Positions 40,695-51,244 of a DNA stretch of 64,000 nt are shown here, piece by piece. The stretch comes from an uncultured Bacteroidia bacterium (GTDB taxonomy: Bacteria > Bacteroidota > Bacteroidia > Bacteroidales > CAJPTX01): assembly GCA_938038735.1 (NCBI GenBank), contig CALHSW010000074.1, positions 16,302-80,301 on the forward strand. The letters run 5' to 3'. The position numbers and the translations under genes are program-made. Under the pieces are notes generated by a model. The model did not search any database, was not told the origin of the DNA, and was given only the letters and a program-made list of their open reading frames with translations. Position 1 is the first letter of the stretch, and every line of letters starts with the position of its first letter.

Positions 40695-42428
40695 CTAGCA
40701 TTGGGCATTTGAAGGAGGAACGGAATCCGTTTGGGGTGCGGCCGCTAGCTCCTTGATGGTTGAGAATGGCGCCCACCATTGGCTCTCATTGTTCCGAAGG
40801 CTTTTTACTTCACCTTGCGGCACGTAGAGCGTAGCAGAGCTAGCAATTCCGATAAAGGCACTGTCGCTTACCTCCATTGTGCCGGTGTTCTGTAGGCAGT
40901 ATACCCCATTCAGCTTGCCGCAATGGCTAAAGGCATCCTCGCCTATGCTGGCAGTGCCTAGCGGGATGGTTATTTTTTCCAGGGAGGGGCAGCCGTAAAA
41001 TGCGCCATCACAGATGGTTTTGATGCTGTTTGGAAGTCTGACTGATTGAAGGGAGAGGCAGCCGTTAAATGCGGTTTCACCGATGGTTTGGACTCCATTG
41101 GGAATGGTTATGTCGGTTAGCTTGGCACCGCAAAACGCATAGTCTCCGATGGCCAGTACAGAGTTAGGAATCTTACAGGGTCCAATTCTTCCCCCTGGGT
41201 AGCTTATCAGCGTTTCGCCGTTTTTGGTGTAGAGTAAACCGTCAGTAGCTTGGTAGTTCCCATTGTCAGGGGACACCCCAAAGCTTTCCAGCGATTGGCA
41301 GTTGAGGAATGCGCCGGGCGGCACGTTGGTAACGCTTGAAGTTATATGGATCGCGGTTAGCCGGCTGCAGTAGGCAAAGGCGTAGTACCCAATTTCCTGC
41401 ACTCCTTGGGGAATTGCATAGACCCCAACCTTGCCGTTGGGGCAGGAGACGAGGGATTGCATGCCCCTGCTGAAAAGCACCCCATCTGCCGTGCAGTAGT
41501 ATTCATTACCCTCCGCCACCTCAAATCGCTGTAGCCTAGAGCATGCATTGAATGCGCTGATGCCGATGGATGCCGTACCGTTGGGGATGGCGATGGAGCT
41601 TAATGCTTGGCAGCCGAAAAATGCGTGGTCCCCGATGGTCGTTAGGCTGGGCGGGAGGGCGATAGAGACGAGGGCGCTACAGCCATAGAATGCGCCGTAA
41701 TCAATGGCGGTGACGCTGCTGGGGATGCGCACCGTGATGAGCTTGTGGCAGTTGTAAAAGGTGCCGCATTGGATGATGGTGATCCCATGGGGTAGGGATA
41801 TTGATTGGAGCTGGCTACAGTCGCTAAAGGCGTAGTTCCCAATGGTTTCCACGCTGTCGGGCAGGGTAAGGGTTTGGAGATTGCGGCAGTTGTAAAATGC
41901 ACCCTCCCCAATGGAAATTAGATTTTCGGGGAGGGTTAGAGCGGTTAGCTCGTCGCAATCTGCGAATGCGTAGTCCCCAATTGCAATCACCCCAGATGGC
42001 ATCTCGTACGTTTCGCCTTTGCGAGGAGGGTGGCGAAGGATGGTCCTTTTATCTCGGCTAAAGAGCGTTCCCGCCACAGCGCAGAGCACTTCGTTGTCGT
42101 CATCCACTTCAATCCCCTGTAGCGCGGTGCATCCGCTGAATGCGCATATTCCAATAGCCGCGACGTGCGCGGGGATGCGAATGGCGGTGATCTCCGTGCA
42201 ATCGGTGAAAGCGTAGTCGGCAATCGCCACAACCCTAAGGGGGGCGCCACTCGGGGTGGGGATTGTATTGGGGATGGCTACAGAGCCGCTAATAGCCTTG
42301 CCGTTCGGTTTGATTATGCACGCATTCTCCGTTTCGGCATATTGGAATAGCCATTCAATGCCATTGTCAACGTAGCTTACCCAGTCGTAGTTGATGTCTT
42401 CGCTGTTTAGAATCATAGCCGTTGCCAT
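40695..42428 (-). CDS. BspA-type leucine-rich-repeat protein lacking a signal peptide and T9SS CTD (paralog of 31943-33661)
   Basis: About 17 LRR_5-type repeats (IPNSVLAIGDYAFCGAKLTDITIPNGVQTIGETAFNGCLSLQSV...). The N-terminus MATAMILNSEDINYDW is not hydrophobic. An in-frame TAA lies two codons upstream of the ATG. The protein ends 20 aa after the shared ATLYV...WW motif. Confidence 0.8.
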   Translation of the reverse strand: MATAMILNSEDINYDWVSYVDNGIEWLFQYAETENACIIKPNGKAISGSVAIPNTIPTPSGAPLRVVAIADYAFTDCTEITAIRIPAHVAAIGICAFSGCTALQGIEVDDDNEVLCAVAGTLFSRDKRTILRHPPRKGETYEMPSGVIAIGDYAFADCDELTALTLPENLISIGEGAFYNCRNLQTLTLPDSVETIGNYAFSDCSQLQSISLPHGITIIQCGTFYNCHKLITVRIPSSVTAIDYGAFYGCSALVSIALPPSLTTIGDHAFFGCQALSSIAIPNGTASIGISAFNACSRLQRFEVAEGNEYYCTADGVLFSRGMQSLVSCPNGKVGVYAIPQGVQEIGYYAFAYCSRLTAIHITSSVTNVPPGAFLNCQSLESFGVSPDNGNYQATDGLLYTKNGETLISYPGGRIGPCKIPNSVLAIGDYAFCGAKLTDITIPNGVQTIGETAFNGCLSLQSVRLPNSIKTICDGAFYGCPSLEKITIPLGTASIGEDAFSHCGKLNGVYCLQNTGTMEVSDSAFIGIASSATLYVPQGEVKSLRNNESQWWAPFSTIKELAAAPQTDSVPPSNAQC

Positions 42429-42555
42429 TAGTTATAAATCCCTTGCGCCGTGTGATGTTTTGGCTGTTTCCCTTCGCGGTGTACGGCGTAAAGATGGTAA
42501 AATTTTTAAAGAATGGGTCTGTTTTTTTGTTGTGCAGCAGTAGCCATGGGCATTG

Positions 42556-42765
42556 CAACGTGAGGAAGGGTTGCAGGGTGCGACGGAACGGCATGGGCTG
42601 GAGCTCGGCGATTGGGAATGGCGTGTAAAGGACTCCAACCCGAATGATTTTTCCTTTAGTTTTTCGGCAGATGTGGCGGGGAGTTCGGTTGAGGCGGAGT
42701 ACAGCACCCGCACCGCTAGCACTGAAGACTGGACGCTCATAGAGGAGGAGCGGCAGCGTAGCAGC
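42556..42765 (+). pseudogene. Internal fragment of a TonB-dependent receptor gene (copy of 47666-47966 with two deletions)
   Basis: The fragment translates to EEGLQGATERHGLELGDWEWRVKDSNPNDFSFSFSADVAGSSVEAEYSTRTASTEDWTLIEEERQRSS, versus DEGLE..GAQGATERHGLELGDREWRVKDSNPNDFFFSFSADVAAPLPHAFQLDAGLAADVAGSSVEAEYSTRTASAEDWTPIEEERQRSS in the full gene. Confidence 0.85.
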
Positions 42766-43002
42766 ATAGGTGCACAATTTCGCGGATGCATGCGCGAGGC
42801 TAAGCGCAAACGGAAATCGCCAAAACATAGGGCGGGACAAATCGGTCATCAGCCGAAAGTTTAAGCGTACAGTCCATCCATCCCCAAGAACAGCCATTTC
42901 CCCGACTTTACCGAAGAGCAGATTGAACGAATACAGGATAAGCGCAACGCAGGGCTGCGAAAAAAAAACTCGGGTACAAAACGCCCAACGAAGCATTTTG
43001 TT

Positions 43003-43010
43003 TACCTTTG
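43003..43010 (+). promoter_or_regulatory. -7 promoter box TACCTTTG (distal candidate for the RiPP-like cassette)
   Basis: Exact TAnnTTTG match 117 nt upstream of the ATG at 43127. Confidence 0.4.
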
Positions 43011-43088
43011 CAGCCGCAGTTGTATTTGCGGGTGAAATTTTCCTTTCAAAGGTCTCAGTAGAGGATTTGCGAATTGAAAAATAAGTGC

Positions 43089-43096
43089 TACATTTG
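43089..43096 (+). promoter_or_regulatory. -7 promoter box TACATTTG (proximal candidate for the RiPP-like cassette)
   Basis: Exact TAnnTTTG match 31 nt upstream of the ATG at 43127. Confidence 0.5.
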
Positions 43097-43126
43097 CGTA
43101 GAGGTTAACTTTAAAATTTTGTTACT

Positions 43127-43309
43127 ATGGATGATTTGTTGTCTTTCAGCGTGGTAGATTTGAGCGACTTGACTGAGGGTATGTCATGTGAGATGTACGA
43201 TGGATGTCAGAATAACCATGGGCGTTGCGGGCAAGGGTGCGGTTGTGGTGGATCTAAAGGGGAGTGCGGCGGATGGATTGACCCAAAAAGTCAAATAGGT
43301 TCCCACTAG
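43127..43309 (+). CDS. Candidate RiPP precursor peptide (60 aa, six Cys, Gly-rich core)
   Basis: MDDLLSFSVVDLSDLTEGMSCEMYDGCQNNHGRCGQGCGCGGSKGECGGWIDPKSQIGSH. It has an acidic, Cys-free N-terminal 17 aa and a Cys/Gly-rich core. ATG start 31 nt after a -7 box, stop 21 nt before the rSAM gene. Confidence 0.65.
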   Translation: MDDLLSFSVVDLSDLTEGMSCEMYDGCQNNHGRCGQGCGCGGSKGECGGWIDPKSQIGSH

Positions 43310-43330
43310 CATTAAGCAGCGAGATTGGAA

Positions 43331-44752
43331 ATGGAGAGTGCTACGTTTCTACATGTGAAGCAGCTCCATTTGATTTGGGGCGTAGGAGATGGCGGAGCCG
43401 TGGCCTACGCCCCAACGAATGGTTGCATCGTTGAGTTGCAAAAGGGTTTAGCGGAAGCAGTTAGGCTATATCAACAGGAAGGGTGTTTTCATCACGAAGG
43501 CATGAGTTCAGACGATGTGCGTGAAGCGTTGGAAAAATTAGAGGCGCAGCTTTGCTTTGCTTCGCAGAGAATGGAAGAGACGGGGCATTGCGATGCTGGT
43601 AAGTCGGTTCTGAACCGTGTTACGTTGCACGTTTCAAACGATTGCAATCTGAATTGCTCGTACTGCTATGCGCTGGGGGGAGACTATGGTCACGAAAGAG
43701 GATTGATGACGAGGCAAACAGCAGTTGATGTCGTTGATTTCCTTTGTCAACAGTTTGATCGGGTTGAGCATGTAGTCTTTTTCGGTGGAGAGCCAATGCT
43801 GAATACACCGGTTATAGAAACGGTATGTGCACAGTTCAAAGAGGCGTACGATCGGGGGCAAATAGAGGCAATTCCTAAATTTGGGATTATAACAAATGGC
43901 ACGATTTTAAACGACAAGGTTGTTTGTTTGATAAGAGACCACATCGATTTTATTACAGTTAGTTTAGATGGACCGAAAGAGATTCACGATTTCAATAGAA
44001 GGAAAAGGGATGGTCAGGGAAGTTATGACGATGTGAATCGTTTTATTCGGCGAATTCAATCTGAAACAGATGTGAAGGTGCGCTTTGAGGGAACGGTCAG
44101 CAAAGAGCATCGGCGAAGGCGGATTAGTGGGCGAGATTTGTATGACTTTGCATATTCCACTTACGGCATTTACGGTTCTGTAGCAACGGATATTCTTGCT
44201 GATGATCGGAGGCATGTGATTCAGGAGGATTCAGAGGATTGGCATACTGAACGTACCATTCTCGGCATACCAGAAAGCCAATTTTACGACACGGGGGTTG
44301 ATCAGCTTCTTCCAGGGCTTGTGCATAATGTGTACCGCGAGATGTGTCCGGTGGGAGAAAACATTGTGTCGATTGACATTCATGGAGACCTGTATGCGTG
44401 TCACATTACTGTAGGTACCAAGAGGTTAAGTTTGGGTTCAATATATGGGGACAATATTTTTACTAGTAGGAATAGGTACGAAGAGCGTTTCCCCTTTTTA
44501 CGTGTGGTCAGAAAGAATCATCAGAAATGTCAGAAATGTTGGATGCGTCGCTTATGTGGAGGCTGTGCCATCCGATGGTTTTTTGATATCTCTGAAATGA
44601 ATTTTCTCGGAGAGCCTAAGCAGGGAATGTGCGAGGCGCAGGGGGAGGAGTTTGAGAAGATTATTGCTGAGCTAGTGAAGGCAAAAAAGGATCCACAAGC
44701 ATGGGATGCTTTGAAAACGTTGCTTCAGACGGTGGGACAGTTGGAGTGCTAG
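43331..44752 (+). CDS. Radical SAM/SPASM-domain peptide-maturase-like enzyme with a ~100-aa N-terminal extension
   Basis: CNLNCSYC (CxxxCxxC) about 100 aa from the N-terminus, FFGGEPML, a C-terminal MCPVGENIVSIDIHGDLYAC (C-x12-G-x4-C) and CQKCWMRRLCGGC auxiliary-cluster cysteines. Confidence 0.85.
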   Translation: MESATFLHVKQLHLIWGVGDGGAVAYAPTNGCIVELQKGLAEAVRLYQQEGCFHHEGMSSDDVREALEKLEAQLCFASQRMEETGHCDAGKSVLNRVTLHVSNDCNLNCSYCYALGGDYGHERGLMTRQTAVDVVDFLCQQFDRVEHVVFFGGEPMLNTPVIETVCAQFKEAYDRGQIEAIPKFGIITNGTILNDKVVCLIRDHIDFITVSLDGPKEIHDFNRRKRDGQGSYDDVNRFIRRIQSETDVKVRFEGTVSKEHRRRRISGRDLYDFAYSTYGIYGSVATDILADDRRHVIQEDSEDWHTERTILGIPESQFYDTGVDQLLPGLVHNVYREMCPVGENIVSIDIHGDLYACHITVGTKRLSLGSIYGDNIFTSRNRYEERFPFLRVVRKNHQKCQKCWMRRLCGGCAIRWFFDISEMNFLGEPKQGMCEAQGEEFEKIIAELVKAKKDPQAWDALKTLLQTVGQLEC

Positions 44753-44756
44753 TTAA

Positions 44757-46490
44757 ATGGTGTCATTAGGGAGACTTCATCGTAGCGTACGGGGGATTCG
44801 TCCCTACCTTTTGCCGTATAGTGGAGAGTGTTTTGTGGGGGTTTTAGGGATGTTGATGAGTGTATTCTTATTGCTGCCCGTGCCGCTTCTTACGAAACAC
44901 CTCGTAGATGATGTTATTCCATTGGGAGACGTGAGCGGGGTGGTCACGATTTGTTTGCTAAGTGGAGCGATTTTGATTGCTTCGAGCATTAGCGGATATT
45001 TTCAGAAATATTATCTTGGGAAGTTTGAACTGGATGTGTTCAAAGACATTCAGCTGTCGTTAGTCCGAAAATTGCGCAGTGTGGATCCTGCGTATAGACA
45101 TACTCAGCAGACGGGATACCTTCTATCACGGGTTACAGATGACACAGGGCGGTTACGATCCCTGTTCACGGATGTCTTAGCGAATTTAGTTAAAGATGTT
45201 CTAATTTTAGTGGTGGGAATCATTCTGCTGTACTATTTGGATTGGCGTTTAGCTTCTATTGCACTTATAACGTTACCATTTTTTATTGCGACTTGGTATT
45301 ATTTCAATTCAAAGATACGGTTGGCAGCCGTTAGATGGTACGAACAGAGTGCACAGTACACAAAAAAGCTTGAGGAGACGATTGGTCTTCTTGATACCGT
45401 AGTTGCGCTTCACGCTTCCGCATTTGACATGAACAAGCTGTGTAAACAGCAGGGGAAGGTGGTAGAGGCAGGAGTTAAAAAGAATGGTGTCGAAGGCATT
45501 GCGAGGGTAGTCATTTCAATAATCGGCGGGCTGTCACCGATTCTTATCATAGGGTTTGGATCTCATTTTATTTTTCAAGGAACGTTTTCATTGGGCGGAC
45601 TAATCGCATTTAATACGCTTACGGGATATGTTTTTGGTCCTTCGTCGCGTATGGTAAATTCTTTGCTCAGTATGCAACAAGGGGTGGCGGCGTGGGAAAG
45701 GGTTGAGGAAATTTTACGCCTTCCGGAGTGCATAAGGATGTCTGATGCAAAGAGTGAGCATTTGGTTGGCTATGAAGGAGCAATTTCCATCGAGTTGCGA
45801 AATGTTACAGTTCGATATGGAGTCAGAGATGCCATAAACGATGTGTCTATTACGGTACCGGATGGCTCTTTCGTGGCTCTTGTGGGAGAAAGTGGAAGTG
45901 GGAAAAGTACTATTATGAGAACTGTTTTGGGGATTCAGGCAGCAACAGCTGGATCTGTTCTGTTTAATGGGTTGCCCATGCATAGAGGAGAGCAGTTATC
46001 TACATTTCGCATTGCGGTATTATCGCAAGAACCGAATTTATTCGCAACTACGATACGCGAGAATATTCTCTTGGGTTTGGACGATTACGACGTAATGGTA
46101 CAGGCAGCTAGAGATGCGCAAATTGCAAGTTTTATTGGTACGTTGCCGAGAGGATACGACACTAGGATTGATGAGAGGGGAATTAATCTTTCTGTAGGGC
46201 AAAAACAGCGCATTGCGTTGGCGAGATGCTTAGTGATGAATCCGAATCTTTTGTTGTTAGATGAGCCAACTTCGAATCTTGACATTGAGTCGGAACGTCA
46301 GTTGTGGGATGCACTTCGTCCTATAATGCGTAAGCGTACCACGATTATGGCAGCGCATCGTCTCCATACTATTAGTGAAGCTGATTGTATATACGTTCTT
46401 TCGAAAGGTAGCGTAGTAGAGCAAGGTACACACTCCGCATTACTCAAATTATGCGGTCAGTATAGTCGGCTTTGGAATATGTACAGGTAA
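44757..46490 (+). CDS. ABC exporter, fused TMD-NBD half transporter (no C39 peptidase domain)
   Basis: Six predicted N-terminal TM helices. Walker A GESGSGKST, signature LSVGQKQRIALARC, Walker B LLLLDEPTSNLD, H-loop AAHRL. Start 4 nt after the rSAM stop. Confidence 0.9.
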   Translation: MVSLGRLHRSVRGIRPYLLPYSGECFVGVLGMLMSVFLLLPVPLLTKHLVDDVIPLGDVSGVVTICLLSGAILIASSISGYFQKYYLGKFELDVFKDIQLSLVRKLRSVDPAYRHTQQTGYLLSRVTDDTGRLRSLFTDVLANLVKDVLILVVGIILLYYLDWRLASIALITLPFFIATWYYFNSKIRLAAVRWYEQSAQYTKKLEETIGLLDTVVALHASAFDMNKLCKQQGKVVEAGVKKNGVEGIARVVISIIGGLSPILIIGFGSHFIFQGTFSLGGLIAFNTLTGYVFGPSSRMVNSLLSMQQGVAAWERVEEILRLPECIRMSDAKSEHLVGYEGAISIELRNVTVRYGVRDAINDVSITVPDGSFVALVGESGSGKSTIMRTVLGIQAATAGSVLFNGLPMHRGEQLSTFRIAVLSQEPNLFATTIRENILLGLDDYDVMVQAARDAQIASFIGTLPRGYDTRIDERGINLSVGQKQRIALARCLVMNPNLLLLDEPTSNLDIESERQLWDALRPIMRKRTTIMAAHRLHTISEADCIYVLSKGSVVEQGTHSALLKLCGQYSRLWNMYR

Positions 46491-46511: not shown

Positions 46512-48935
46512 ATGTGCAACACATCTAGAGGAAGACACGGGGCGTGGGTGGTGCTTTTAGCGGCACTGCTGCTGTGCGCTCTGCCTATGGGCGCAGCGGC
46601 GCAGCGCAAAGAGAAGAAGGAGCAGGGGCGCGGACACGAGCTGGTGGGGCGTGCCGTGGACTCTACATCAAGGCAGGGGGTTGCCTATGCAACGGTGCAG
46701 CTGGTTACGCCAGAAGGCGAGGTTTTCAGCGGTGCTATCTGCGACTCTGAGGGAAACTTTAAGCTGGTCAAGGTGCCGAGCAAAGCGTTGTCCATCAAGG
46801 TTCAAGCACTTGGTTATAAGCCTAAAACGCTACATCTCGATTTAGAAAGTACAAAAAACAATGATTTTGCGATAGGCGACGTACCGCTTACCATTGACCA
46901 GCTCGCCATTGAGCAGGTGACCGTGAAGGGGGATGCCCCATTCCTGATGCTAAAGCCTAACCGCAAGGTGGTAACGCCGCAGATGGAGGATCTGGCAGCG
47001 GGCGCCGTGATGACCGATTTGCTCAAGCGGATTCCGGATTTTGAGGTGACCTCTCCAATGGACATCACGCTGCGGGGTGCAGCGTTCCGGGTGCTTATTA
47101 ATGGGAAGCCGTCGGGGCTTTCCACTACACAGCTCAACACAATAAATTTGGCCGAGGTGGCCTCCATTGAAATTATCACCACGCCTTCCGTGCGCTATAG
47201 GGCGAGCGATGTGGGCGGGGTGGTGAATATCAAACTAAAACGCTACCAGGTGGGGTTTAACTCCGTGCTGCAAGCTGCGGGCGGTTCGGATAACTGCTAC
47301 AGCCTATCGGCATCGGCCAACGTGGGGCTAAAAAAGGTTAACTTCTTCGGGGCGTTGTTCGGGGGATACGAGGGGGCAAGAAATGCGTTCACCTATAGTT
47401 CTACCGATGCGCATGGCGAGCCCTTGGAGCGTTACCAGCTCAACGACCGAATGAATAATTTACGATTACGGCCTAAGGTTGGCATCGATTACCTCCCCAC
47501 GCAAAAAGACGTGCTGTCAATTTTTTGGGCAATGGACTACTATAACGACAAGTATACGCGGCGCGCGGAGCGAACGTACAAAGCGCAGGCAATCCAGCAT
47601 GGCGGCGGGCTATCGCGAGAGCGGATGATGTCGAATGAGGCTAATGCGCTGTACACGCACACCTTCAACGACGAAGGGCTGGAGCTGTCCGTATCGGCCA
47701 TCGGGACGCTTGACGGTGCGCAGGGCGCGACGGAACGGCATGGGCTGGAGCTCGGCGATCGGGAATGGCGTGTAAAGGACTCCAACCCGAATGATTTTTT
47801 CTTTAGCTTCTCGGCAGATGTGGCGGCGCCACTTCCGCATGCCTTCCAGCTGGATGCAGGGCTTGCGGCGGATGTGGCGGGAAGTTCGGTTGAGGCGGAG
47901 TACAGCACCCGCACCGCTAGTGCTGAAGACTGGACACCCATAGAGGAGGAGCGGCAGCGTAGCAGCTCCCTAACGCAGGTGTATGGTGCCTATGGTGACC
48001 TTTCCTGGGAGGCGAGCGACAAGGTGACTCTAAACGCAGGCGTACGCTACGAGCATTACCGTATGCGCAGCAACGATGAGCGGCAAAGCAACCCGTACGG
48101 CCGTCATGCCAATGATGCTTTCTTTAGCGGGGGCGTGGCGTATACCCCCATCAAAGCACTACATTTTTCTTTGAGCTATAGCGGGAGGGTGGATCGGCCC
48201 GGGGCATCAATGCTCACATCGGCAAAACGCATGGCAGATTTTTACAATGAGTTTTCTATTGGCAACCAGAGGTTGATGTCGGCCTACTCGCATGGGGTGG
48301 AGCTCAGCATGGCGCAGCGGATGGAGAGTTGTTCGTTCTACGAGGATGCAAAGTGGACGTATATAGCGAACCCTATAGAGTCGTACTCGAGCAAACTAAC
48401 CGATTCTACGTGGCTAAAGAGCTACGTAAATCTAAAGCAGGAACGAAACCTATACGTTGGCGTGGGGGGAAATTGGGATGCCGCATCGTGGTGCAGCGTG
48501 TGGTTTAATGCGAGGGGGCAGGGGGTGAAGAGTCAAGACAAAGGGGGCGATTGGCTGGTTAATGATGAGTGGAGTTTTGGCGTGCGGATGGGCGCGGACT
48601 TCCCCATCAATAGCATGTGGGCACTCACCGCATGGGGTGGCTACAGCAGCGCGAGGCGCAACGCGTACCGTCACTACAAGGCGCAGCCCGCATTGAATGC
48701 GGGTGTGTACTTCTACCCGCTTAGGAATAGGAGTTTCGTCCTCGTTCTGCAGGGCATAAACCTTTTGACTACCGGTATGAACTACACGACGCATTCGGAT
48801 GGGGTGACGGCGAATTGGGATTTTGATTGGCAAACCCGGGCGGTATACCTGAACGTGTATTGGCGTTTCGGCGGTGCGTACCGTTCCAAGACCGGCGAGC
48901 GGTTCAATTCGGATATTAACGCGGTTGGGAGGTAG
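46512..48935 (+). CDS. TonB-dependent receptor-like outer-membrane beta-barrel protein with an N-terminal carboxypeptidase-regulatory-like domain
   Basis: Signal peptide ...LPMGAAA|Q, CarbopepD_reg-like GRAVDSTSRQGVAYATVQLV..EG..FSGAICDSEGNFKL, a plug-like region (VTVKGDAPF..), then a long beta-barrel region. Confidence 0.8.
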   Translation: MCNTSRGRHGAWVVLLAALLLCALPMGAAAQRKEKKEQGRGHELVGRAVDSTSRQGVAYATVQLVTPEGEVFSGAICDSEGNFKLVKVPSKALSIKVQALGYKPKTLHLDLESTKNNDFAIGDVPLTIDQLAIEQVTVKGDAPFLMLKPNRKVVTPQMEDLAAGAVMTDLLKRIPDFEVTSPMDITLRGAAFRVLINGKPSGLSTTQLNTINLAEVASIEIITTPSVRYRASDVGGVVNIKLKRYQVGFNSVLQAAGGSDNCYSLSASANVGLKKVNFFGALFGGYEGARNAFTYSSTDAHGEPLERYQLNDRMNNLRLRPKVGIDYLPTQKDVLSIFWAMDYYNDKYTRRAERTYKAQAIQHGGGLSRERMMSNEANALYTHTFNDEGLELSVSAIGTLDGAQGATERHGLELGDREWRVKDSNPNDFFFSFSADVAAPLPHAFQLDAGLAADVAGSSVEAEYSTRTASAEDWTPIEEERQRSSSLTQVYGAYGDLSWEASDKVTLNAGVRYEHYRMRSNDERQSNPYGRHANDAFFSGGVAYTPIKALHFSLSYSGRVDRPGASMLTSAKRMADFYNEFSIGNQRLMSAYSHGVELSMAQRMESCSFYEDAKWTYIANPIESYSSKLTDSTWLKSYVNLKQERNLYVGVGGNWDAASWCSVWFNARGQGVKSQDKGGDWLVNDEWSFGVRMGADFPINSMWALTAWGGYSSARRNAYRHYKAQPALNAGVYFYPLRNRSFVLVLQGINLLTTGMNYTTHSDGVTANWDFDWQTRAVYLNVYWRFGGAYRSKTGERFNSDINAVGR

Positions 48936-49090
48936 AGGGCTGCACGCTGCGGTTGCGGCAGCATGGAGTGAAAAGAGGACGGAGGGTGGAAGAAGCGGCT
49001 CCTGCACCCCCGCCAAAGGTCTCTAGAAGGCTGCCAATTTTGGCCTGTGCAGAGGCTCTTGCTATGACAAAATGTCGGCTGCTTTGTTGC

Positions 49091-49105
49091 TGGCACTCCA
49101 ATTGC
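49091..49105 (+). promoter_or_regulatory. Candidate sigma-54 promoter TGGCAC-N5-TTGC upstream of htpG
   Basis: TGGCACTCCAATTGC is an exact match to the -24 GG / -12 GC consensus spacing. It is intergenic, correctly oriented, and its 3' end lies 75 nt before the htpG ATG. No TAnnTTTG box is nearby. Confidence 0.5.
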
Positions 49106-49180
49106 CTCCGCATTGGAGGAGCGTGAGCGCGGGAAATGCGCCGTGCGAGAGTGTAGAATTTAAGGTATAGCGGGAGAGTT

Positions 49181-51244
49181 ATGGCAAAGAGTGGTAAGAT
49201 AGGGGTAGCAACAGAGAATATATTCCCTATAATCAAGAAGTTCCTGTATAGCGACCATGAGATTTTTTTACGGGAGATAGTGGCGAACGCGGTGGACGCA
49301 ACGCAGAAGCTGCGTACCCTGTCGCGGGCTGGCGATTTTACGGGGGAGCTAGGCGATGAGACGATTGAGGTGCGCCTAGACAAGGAGGCGAAGACGTTGA
49401 CCATCAGCGATAAGGGGGTAGGGATGACGGCGGACGAGGTGGAGAAGTACATCAACCAGATTGCGCTGTCGGGGGCAACGTCCTTCCTAGACAAGTATAA
49501 GGATGCTGGAGCAATCATAGGCCATTTCGGGCTTGGGTTCTACTCGGCGTTCATGGTGAGCGATGAGGTGGAAATTGATACGCTGTCGTGGCAGGAGGGT
49601 GCGAAACCGGTGCGCTGGAGTTGCAAGGGCGATCCGGAGTACACCGTTTCGGAGGGAAGCCGCGCAGCGCGGGGGACAGATATTATTCTCCATATTAGCG
49701 AGGAGAATGCGGAGTTTCTAGAGAAGCAGCGCGTGCAGGAGTTGCTGCAGAAGTATTGCCGATTCATGGCGGTGCCCATCGCCTTTGGCAAGAAAACCAC
49801 GTGGAAGGACGGCAAGGAGGAAGAGACCGATGAGCTAAACATCATAAACGATGCGGAGCCGATATGGACCCGAAAGCCAGCAGACTTGACAGATGAGGAT
49901 TACGACAAGTTCTACCGTGCGCTCTACCCAATGGCAGAGGATCCGCTGTTCCATATCCATCTGAATGTGGATTACCCATTTAACCTCACAGGGGTACTCT
50001 ACTTCCCGCGTCTGAAGTCGAATTTTGACATCCAGCGCAACAAAATACAGCTGTACTGCAACCAGGTATTTGTTACCGACTCGGTGGAGGGCATTGTGCC
50101 TGAGTACCTAACGCTGCTGCACGGCGTGATAGATTCGCCCGACATCCCACTGAACGTGTCGCGAAGCTACCTGCAGAGCGACCAGAACGTGAAGAAAATT
50201 GCGGGGTACATCACCAAGAAGGTGGCGGATCGCCTCGCGGAGCTCTTCAAGGAGGACAGGGCGCAGTACGAGTCGAAGTGGGACGACCTAAAGCTTTTCA
50301 TCACCTATGGGATGGTGACAGACGAGAAGTTCTACGAGCGTTCGTCAGAGTTCATGCTCTTTAAGAACATTGACGGCAAGTACTTTACGCAGAGTGAGTA
50401 CCGAGAGCTGGTGGCACCGAACCAAACGGATAAGTCGGAAGACGTGATTTACCTCTACGCCACCGACCGTGAGGGGCAGTGGAGCTACATAGAGGCGGCG
50501 AAGGCTAAGGGGTACGATGTGCTGCTGATGGATGGGCAACTCGACGCGCATTTAGTAAACCATCTAGAGCAGAAGCTAGAGAAGACCCGCTTCATGCGGG
50601 TGGATGCGAACACCGTTGATAAGCTGATTGACAAGGGGGGTGCGGCAGCGGTAAGCCTGAGCGAGGAGGCGCAGGGCGTGCTGCGGGAGGTGATGGAAGG
50701 CGTGGCGCGTGGCGAGGAGCACATTACGGTGCGCTTTGAAGAGCTGGGCGAGGGGGAGCTGCCGGCCGTAGTGACGCAAAACGAGTTCATGCGCCGTATG
50801 TACGATATGCAGGCGATGAGCCCCACGAACCCGCTATTCGGCTCTATGCCGCAGGGTCTTGATTTGGTGCTGAATAGCTCGCACCCGCTGGTGAAGAAGA
50901 TGTGGCAGGAGGCGGAGGCGGCGCTACGCGAGGATATCAAGACGAGCGAGGCCGCGCTCACGCCGCTTGAGGAGGAGCTAAAGGCCATTAACGAACGCAC
51001 GAAGGGGGTGGAGTACGATAAGGTACCCGAAGAGGACAAGAAGCGGCGCGAGGCGCTGTACGCAGAGATAGATAAGGCGAAGGAGGCGCGGCGCAGCAAG
51101 TTCTCGGAGTATGGGAAGAGCAATGAGCTAGCGGGGCAGATCTACGATTTAGCCTTGCTCTCGAACAATCAGCTGAAGGGCGAGGCGTTACAGCGTTTCG
51201 TAAAGCGGAGCGTGGAGATTGTGGAAAAGGCGCAGCAGAAGTAG
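49181..51244 (+). CDS. htpG: Molecular chaperone HtpG (Hsp90)
   Basis: FLRELVANAVDA (here FLREIVANAVDATQKL), GHFGLGFYSAFMV, IPLNVSRSYLQ, 687 aa. Confidence 0.95.
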   Translation: MAKSGKIGVATENIFPIIKKFLYSDHEIFLREIVANAVDATQKLRTLSRAGDFTGELGDETIEVRLDKEAKTLTISDKGVGMTADEVEKYINQIALSGATSFLDKYKDAGAIIGHFGLGFYSAFMVSDEVEIDTLSWQEGAKPVRWSCKGDPEYTVSEGSRAARGTDIILHISEENAEFLEKQRVQELLQKYCRFMAVPIAFGKKTTWKDGKEEETDELNIINDAEPIWTRKPADLTDEDYDKFYRALYPMAEDPLFHIHLNVDYPFNLTGVLYFPRLKSNFDIQRNKIQLYCNQVFVTDSVEGIVPEYLTLLHGVIDSPDIPLNVSRSYLQSDQNVKKIAGYITKKVADRLAELFKEDRAQYESKWDDLKLFITYGMVTDEKFYERSSEFMLFKNIDGKYFTQSEYRELVAPNQTDKSEDVIYLYATDREGQWSYIEAAKAKGYDVLLMDGQLDAHLVNHLEQKLEKTRFMRVDANTVDKLIDKGGAAAVSLSEEAQGVLREVMEGVARGEEHITVRFEELGEGELPAVVTQNEFMRRMYDMQAMSPTNPLFGSMPQGLDLVLNSSHPLVKKMWQEAEAALREDIKTSEAALTPLEEELKAINERTKGVEYDKVPEEDKKRREALYAEIDKAKEARRSKFSEYGKSNELAGQIYDLALLSNNQLKGEALQRFVKRSVEIVEKAQQK

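Follow-up and report, generated by a model that had tools for sequence, protein, structure and literature searches.

The locus lies in a window of 64,000 nucleotides, i.e. the whole stretch of DNA that was analysed, to which all coordinates without a contig name refer. Its genes stand on the two sides of a divergent intergenic region. A BspA-type LRR gene is read to the left, and a radical-SAM (rSAM) peptide cassette and the gene of an intact TonB-dependent receptor are read to the right; htpG comes next after the receptor gene. A piece of the receptor gene is found a second time within the intergenic region, and this upstream copy is called the relic in what follows. The features of the locus are these:

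40695..42428, minus strand: divergent BspA-type LRR gene that starts 5 nt away from the polymorphic segment
42434..42572, no strand assigned: segment 'A', 139 bp between the LRR start codon and the relic, in fragment-bearing strains only
42455..42478, plus strand: left arm of a 24-nt imperfect inverted repeat (20/24) that encloses the relic (repeat search)
42573..42765, plus strand: receptor-derived relic, codons 403-485 minus 54 bp, apparently non-coding (BLASTN, repeat search)
42670..42679, plus strand: single GATGTGGCGG at the deletion joint inside the relic, where the alignment shows a 54-bp gap
42805..42828, minus strand: right arm of the inverted repeat; the relic-less contigs L015 and L016 have this arm alone
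43003..43010, plus strand: Bacteroidetes-type -7 box TACCTTTG, common to strains with and without the cassette (motif scan)
43044..46487, plus strand: cassette indel, one clean block of 3,444 bp with a -7 box at 43089, the precursor, the rSAM/SPASM maturase and the ABC exporter
43127-43309, plus strand: precursor, a Cys/Gly-rich 60-aa ORF inside the cassette
43325-44752, plus strand: radical SAM/SPASM maturase (domain search)
44757-46490, plus strand: ABC exporter (domain search)
46512..48935, plus strand: intact TonB-dependent receptor of 807 aa with the Pfam domains CarboxypepD_reg, Plug and OMP_b-brl_3
47720..47966, plus strand: source segment of 247 bp within the receptor gene (BLASTN)
47817..47880, plus strand: two GATGTGGCGG direct repeats, 47817-47826 and 47871-47880, 54 bp start to start, which enclose the codons of 18 conserved residues

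The best NCBIfam similarities of the maturase are to ranthipeptide/SCIFF-type maturases, and all of them are under the cut-off. The start of the precursor is uncertain, i.e. in the window an upstream ATG opens a 60-aa ORF, whereas gene callers gave only a 32-aa ORF in the other strains (L012:2664-2762 and its equivalents). The -7 box at 43003 is likely to be the promoter of the receptor operon; in the contigs L020-L022 its equivalent at the same place reads TAGCTTTG or TATCTTTG. The motif scan also gave the second canonical box at 43089, inside the cassette, and no canonical -7 box within or to the left of the relic on either strand. The stretch that holds the operon promoter (42830-43043) shows 12-19 differences per 100 bp between strains, compared with about 3-5% around it. 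The AlphaFold model of the receptor has a mean pLDDT of 43, which is too poor to place the duplicated fragment on the barrel.

The duplication was seen alike by the repeat search, MAFFT and BLASTN, and the sequence-only reading was correct in describing a same-orientation copy of receptor DNA upstream of the cassette. The relic occupies 42573-42765 (193 bp) on the same strand as its receptor source at 47720-47966 (247 bp, codons 403-485). BLASTN finds the match in two blocks, 42573-42679 against 47720-47826 (107 nt, 95.3% identity, E 5e-46) and 42662-42765 against 47863-47966 (104 nt, 93.3% identity, E 6e-41). The two blocks share 18 nt in the upstream copy, because the receptor gene holds an imperfect direct repeat with GATGTGGCGG as its core. 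Once 54 bp are taken out of the receptor segment the two copies are collinear over 193 bp, with 10 mismatches (183/193 identical). A BLASTN search of the 2.46-Mb assembly showed that these are the only two copies of the segment in the genome. The relic lies 145 nt from the LRR start codon and, as had been reported, about 360 nt from the precursor, whose ATG is at 43127.

The limits given earlier need correction. The homology had been placed at 42556 and 47666 on the left, which corresponded to receptor codons ~385-485, and it really begins at 42573 and 47720, so that the true range is codons 403-485. To the left of these positions neither MAFFT nor the allele alignments gave alignable receptor sequence, and the relic flanks contain no further receptor similarity. 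The additional ~39 bp said to be missing near the 5' end of the upstream copy are the product of a forced alignment, as the sequence there is unrelated. For segment 'A', which is 97% identical in L020, a sensitive BLAST search of the genome and of the alternative alleles gave no match that could be its source.

The 54-bp difference between the copies was described by the sequence-only reading as a segment bounded in the receptor gene by a 10-bp direct repeat at 47817 and 47871 and absent upstream, and this was confirmed. In the window GATGTGGCGG occurs exactly at 42670, 47817 and 47871, where 0.2 occurrences are expected by chance; the relic has the single copy at 42670. The 18 residues encoded by the 54-bp segment (A-PLPxAFxLDAGLAADV) are present in all receptor homologues (P0001-P0005), down to 53% identity, and the alignment shows that the relic of cassette-less strains keeps the 54 bp. 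Because of this conservation among the homologues and in the relics of the cassette-less strains, the gap is to be read as a loss in the relic of the window. The loss is evidently a slippage or short-direct-repeat deletion that left one repeat at the joint. It resembles known slipped-strand deletions in that 54 bp have gone from between two 8-10-bp repeat copies of which one remains. The deletion happens to be in frame; it is otherwise a usual one, in a relic that is apparently not translated.

The structure of the locus was compared in 16 contigs of the same species, which are 94-99% identical to the window in the shared regions. The contigs were collected through the members of the receptor cluster (27 members at 90% identity), through the ORF that overlaps the fragment, and through one metagenome scan with the left junction of the relic. 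For one of them, L017, the sequence starts within the ABC gene and stops short of the upstream region. The window and the other 15 contigs represent four structural alleles:

Type C (window, L013, L014, L018): 193-bp relic and cassette
Type A (L020, L021, L022, L028): cassette absent; relic of 247 bp (249 bp with a 2-bp GC insertion near the left end), the 54 bp kept
Type B2 (L015, L016, L029, L030): cassette present; segment 'A' and relic replaced by an unrelated segment of ~550 bp with a 104-aa ORF
Type B1 (L012, with the cassette; L019, without the cassette and with a frameshifted receptor): the 104-aa-ORF segment in a larger replacement, to window position 42900

The relic is thus present in eight contigs of the species, the window and those of types C and A listed with it, and absent from six (L012, L015, L016, L019, L029 and L030). 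The type A relic is ~94.8% identical to the receptor of the window. In type B2 the homology to the window restarts at the last six bases of the relic, AGCAGC. The 104-aa ORF (L012:1856-2170, minus strand, and also L015, L016, L019, L029 and L030) has no family match and is absent from the genome of the window; its stop codon shares bases with the LRR start (TAATG), and ~17 nt before its ATG there is a canonical TACCTTTG box. The ORF has the appearance of a genuine small gene, translationally coupled to the LRR gene and apparently co-transcribed with it.

Searches with the intergenic DNA and with the receptor in other species of the genus and order gave only paralogues of 21-22% identity and no fragment, and a scan of genome contigs with receptor peptides gave no match. 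These searches thus gave no outgroup by which to polarise the structural alleles. The metagenome scan for deletion recombinants carrying the left junction of the relic gave one contig, which has a normal cassette-less allele.

The cassette is a clean presence/absence polymorphism within the species (3.4 kb), and the contigs provide exact empty and filled sites for its study. It is missing from L019, L020, L021, L022 and L028. Read base by base, the junctions 43043/43044 and 46487/46488 are identical in L019-L022, and the edges in L028 have the same BLAST limits; the stop codon TAA of the ABC gene coincides with the first bases of the retained flank. The left breakpoint follows the relic after 280 bp, and the right one precedes the receptor copy by 1.2 kb. 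In other words, the edges of the cassette (43044-46487) do not coincide with the repeats (42573-42765 and 47720-47966) but lie outside both of them. Moreover, the empty site in L020, L021, L022 and L028 holds both repeat copies and not one. As the breakpoints are outside both repeats and the fragment occurs in cassette-less strains, the repeats neither arose with the cassette nor delimit it, and the relic evidently plays no part in the gain or loss of the cassette. The sequence-only reading had proposed a comparison with relatives lacking the cassette, and it was this comparison that proved informative: four such contigs still carry the fuller, 247-bp fragment.

No reading frame through the relic is kept between strains. 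On the minus strand the ORF measures 209 aa in the window but 157 aa in type A and 155 aa in P0023, and indels of 2 bp and 1 bp give it differing C-termini; on the plus strand its length goes from 103 aa (window) to 166 aa (L018). Frame-changing indels of 2, 1 and 4 bp separate the strains, in addition to the 54-bp indel, and the gene callers choose ORFs of differing strand and length from strain to strain. None of the ORFs through the relic has a Pfam match. The long minus-strand ORF is inherited and no sign of a gene, because the antisense frame of the receptor itself is open in the same way. A real minus-strand protein (the 209-aa ORF, P0022) was considered and rejected, since its C-termini vary among near-identical strains and it has no family match. 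The relic comprises codons 403-485 of 807, i.e. it has no start, no signal peptide, no CarboxypepD_reg or Plug domain and is without most of the barrel. To judge from these comparisons it is non-coding. At the RNA level, Rfam gave only two chance-level matches in 42000-43500, both inside the rSAM gene, and the fold z-scores (-1.9 and -0.8) were unremarkable.

The relic is close to the receptor alleles of its own species. Over homologous columns it differs from them by 4.8-8.8%, the receptor alleles differ among themselves by a mean of 4.1% and a maximum of 8% in the same segment, and the relics differ from each other by 1.5%. Only 4-5 positions separate all relics from all receptor alleles sampled as DNA, and several of the differences that the window seems to show are changes found in its own receptor allele alone. 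The maximum-likelihood tree of relic and receptor segments is a star in which the relics are not set apart from the receptor alleles. In the receptor frame 6/10 relic-receptor differences are synonymous, which fits differences that built up mostly in translated receptor alleles. The relic therefore resembles the fossil of a receptor allele that belongs to the diversity of the species. The receptor itself has a π of 0.043-0.048 in the homologous segment, compared with 0.009-0.052 elsewhere in the gene, a value that is high and no outlier.

Receptor residues 471 and 476 (47922-47939) occur as three linked haplotypes, A-P, S-I and T-L, and the codon changes CCC->CTC->ATC put L between P and I. 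The T-L state (T471, L476), which had seemed peculiar to the relic, recurs in one receptor allele, P0018, which is generally divergent. The match of P0018 at these two residues could reflect gene conversion instead of shared ancestry.

Between strains, segment 'A' and the relic diverge by 2-3%; the LRR gene diverges by about 5% and the 200 bp of intergenic DNA that follow by 12-19%, all of them values that come from few sites. This lower divergence may point to some constraint or to a recent spread by recombination. The arms of the 24-nt inverted repeat, which enclose a segment of 374 bp, are kept in all fragment-bearing contigs; the arm motif is unique to the locus in the genome, and by our own binomial estimate the local chance expectation of such a repeat is ~3e-4. 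The divergence between strains climbs sharply just past the right arm. All eight assemblies (8/8) are collinear here and no inverted form was seen. There is no TAnnTTTG between the arms on either strand, and no recombinase family among the genes called around the homologous loci. A MITE or other mobile element of 374 bp was rejected, as the segment is single-copy, has no target-site duplication, and the right arm stands alone in L015 and L016.

The explanation that we prefer, with a probability of about 0.8, is that the upstream copy is an old, non-coding relic of the receptor gene that arose by illegitimate recombination in an intergenic region prone to rearrangement, independently of the cassette, and that later lost 54 bp. 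A 247-bp receptor piece (codons 403-485) would have been set ectopically, in the same orientation, between the LRR gene and the promoter of the receptor operon. The recombination would have been illegitimate, probably microhomology-mediated, and would have taken place within the history of the species without the rSAM cassette being involved. The relic of the window's lineage would then have lost 54 bp between the two 8-10-bp GATGTGGCGG repeats, plus 2 bp elsewhere. The alignments show the homology and where it ends, its occurrence with and without the cassette, which way the 54-bp change went, and that no frame is kept; we infer the mechanism of origin and the absence of function. The sequence-only reading had offered a product of illegitimate recombination as one of two origins, and this stays the best description.

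The right joint of the relic reads ...GTAGCAGC/ATAGGTG..., and its AGCAGC is common to the relic-less type B2 sequence at that place. These six bases would be either a microhomology joint or the remainder of a relic that the 104-aa-ORF segment replaced from a breakpoint six bases within it. Likewise, the copy may have originated either as a tandem duplication followed by deletion or as a patch captured in break repair. Short gene relics in intergenic DNA are commonplace, and the present one resembles other bacterial gene relics in being an internal gene piece with no start or conserved frame, with lineage-specific indels and a strain-variable presence. It is distinguished from them by having outlasted species-level diversification, by being somewhat better conserved than the neighbouring intergenic DNA, and by having its source gene just 1.8-5.1 kb away on the same strand.

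Several other explanations were weighed against a relic formed by illegitimate recombination. A mis-joined or chimeric contig could have put receptor reads upstream, and the source is indeed a draft assembly of 76 contigs. However, seven more assemblies, made by different pipelines (Logan, ENA, GenBank WGS) from different samples, show the structure again, and indels as well as 10 mismatches set the copy apart from the receptor, which leaves practically no room for an artefact. The second origin named by the sequence-only reading was the remnant of a complete receptor paralog that was destroyed when the cassette inserted. The position of the fragment, upstream of the cassette and oriented like the receptor, is what such an event would leave, but the cassette-less contigs L020, L021, L022 and L028 hold the fragment in its fuller, 247-bp form. 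In addition, the breakpoints of the cassette are 280 bp downstream of the fragment, its flanks have no further receptor similarity, and a second receptor gene is found at this site in 0/16 contigs. A destroyed paralog is thus highly improbable.

The same reading suggested that the direct repeats could mediate excision or amplification of a unit made up of the cassette and the receptor gene's 5' half; if this happened regularly the population would be heterogeneous. The physical part of the suggestion stands, i.e. the repeats are direct, 5.1 kb apart, and contain perfect runs of 39, 38, 33 and 28 bp. Such runs suffice in principle for rare RecA-dependent exchange in terms of minimal homology lengths. 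On the other hand, 0/16 contigs have a recombinant junction inside the repeat, the loss of the cassette has other breakpoints, and the repeats persist 1.76 kb apart in cassette-less strains. The ~5% mismatch and the short perfect runs should make the event rare. The deletion would leave segment 'A' fused to the receptor's 3' half, a null allele without promoter, cassette, signal peptide or plug. Regular excision or amplification is accordingly unlikely. The sequence-only reading had proposed to look in related strains for deletion or duplication variants with junctions inside the repeat, and it had named an intact second receptor; neither occurs among the 16 contigs, an outcome that it had itself named as speaking against it.

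A functional relic was also considered, as a silent gene-conversion donor for a variable and probably surface-exposed part of the receptor, as an antisense leader of the LRR gene or as the body of an invertible segment. Segment 'A' and the relic are better conserved than their surroundings, the P0018 receptor allele has the T471/L476 of the relic, and the 24-nt inverted repeat encloses the relic. Furthermore, the fragment-bearing alleles are without the canonical minus-strand -7 box of the 104-aa-ORF alleles, and LRR transcription might start beyond the relic. It is because of the inverted repeat, the low divergence and the P0018 coincidence that a function is kept in consideration at a low probability. 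Against it, the relic is wholly absent from six contigs of the species and its fold z-scores do not stand out. A donor would be a single copy with 4-5 differences, the receptor diversity in the segment is no outlier (0.045, compared with 0.052 and 0.045 in other windows), and P0018 is generally divergent, so that shared ancestry explains its match. For an invertible segment, the single orientation in eight assemblies, the missing TAnnTTTG between the arms, the unique arm motif and the lack of a called recombinase are all unfavourable. We regard a function of any of these kinds as quite unlikely. The same low expectation applies to the two specific forms that a useful relic might take, a donor that occasionally converts the variable receptor codons ~470-485 or the antisense body of the LRR-mRNA leader. 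If the latter were true, the leader would pair over ~200 nt with the receptor mRNA and would couple the expression of two envelope proteins.

Two known systems invite comparison with these functional forms. In the silent-cassette systems (pilE/pilS of Neisseria, vlsE of Borrelia, the msp2 pseudogenes of Anaplasma) an expressed surface-protein gene has a partial copy without promoter in its neighbourhood, as is the case here, and here too one expressed allele (P0018) has the variant residues of the copy. The present locus differs in having a single donor with very few differences that is missing in many strains, a target that is not hypervariable, and no demonstrated mosaic tracts. The invertons of Bacteroidales are invertible promoters upstream of surface-protein and SusC-like receptor genes (PMC11892184, PMC8748976). 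The likeness lies in the 374-bp intergenic segment with its 24-nt imperfect inverted repeats between two surface-protein genes; the differences are that the segment was seen in one orientation (8 assemblies), that it has no canonical promoter box inside, that no motif is shared with other sites, that no recombinase is nearby and that other strains have the right arm alone.

By itself the copy matters little, and the gain is corrective, i.e. the repeat has nothing to do with how the radical-SAM peptide cassette moves. Of greater use than the relic are the exact cassette indel, the receptor-only strains and the structural alleles of the divergent promoter region. With four or more such alleles within 700 bp, the locus is a small example of how illegitimate recombination shapes regulatory DNA in uncultured gut Bacteroidales.

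The receptor gene and the shared -7 box (43003) stay in the cassette-less strains. As the receptor is kept without the cassette, these strains may take up a peptide that they do not make, a point of relevance to what the peptide-receptor pair does. In L019 (2490-4914) the receptor is split by a frameshift into ORFs of 665 aa and 159 aa, which suggests decay once the cassette had gone. Among the distant receptors (53-59% identical), one has an intact ABC exporter in front of it (L027). Others have decayed ABC pieces there, i.e. only the last 29 aa in L023, and three pieces together with a split receptor in L024/L026. Cassette erosion beside a surviving receptor has evidently happened repeatedly, and because the distant homologues keep decayed ABC pieces, relics and piecemeal decay appear to be typical of such loci. 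A second strongly diverged stretch of intergenic DNA, at 48887-49185, reaches a π of up to 0.089 between strains, compared with about 3-5% in its surroundings.
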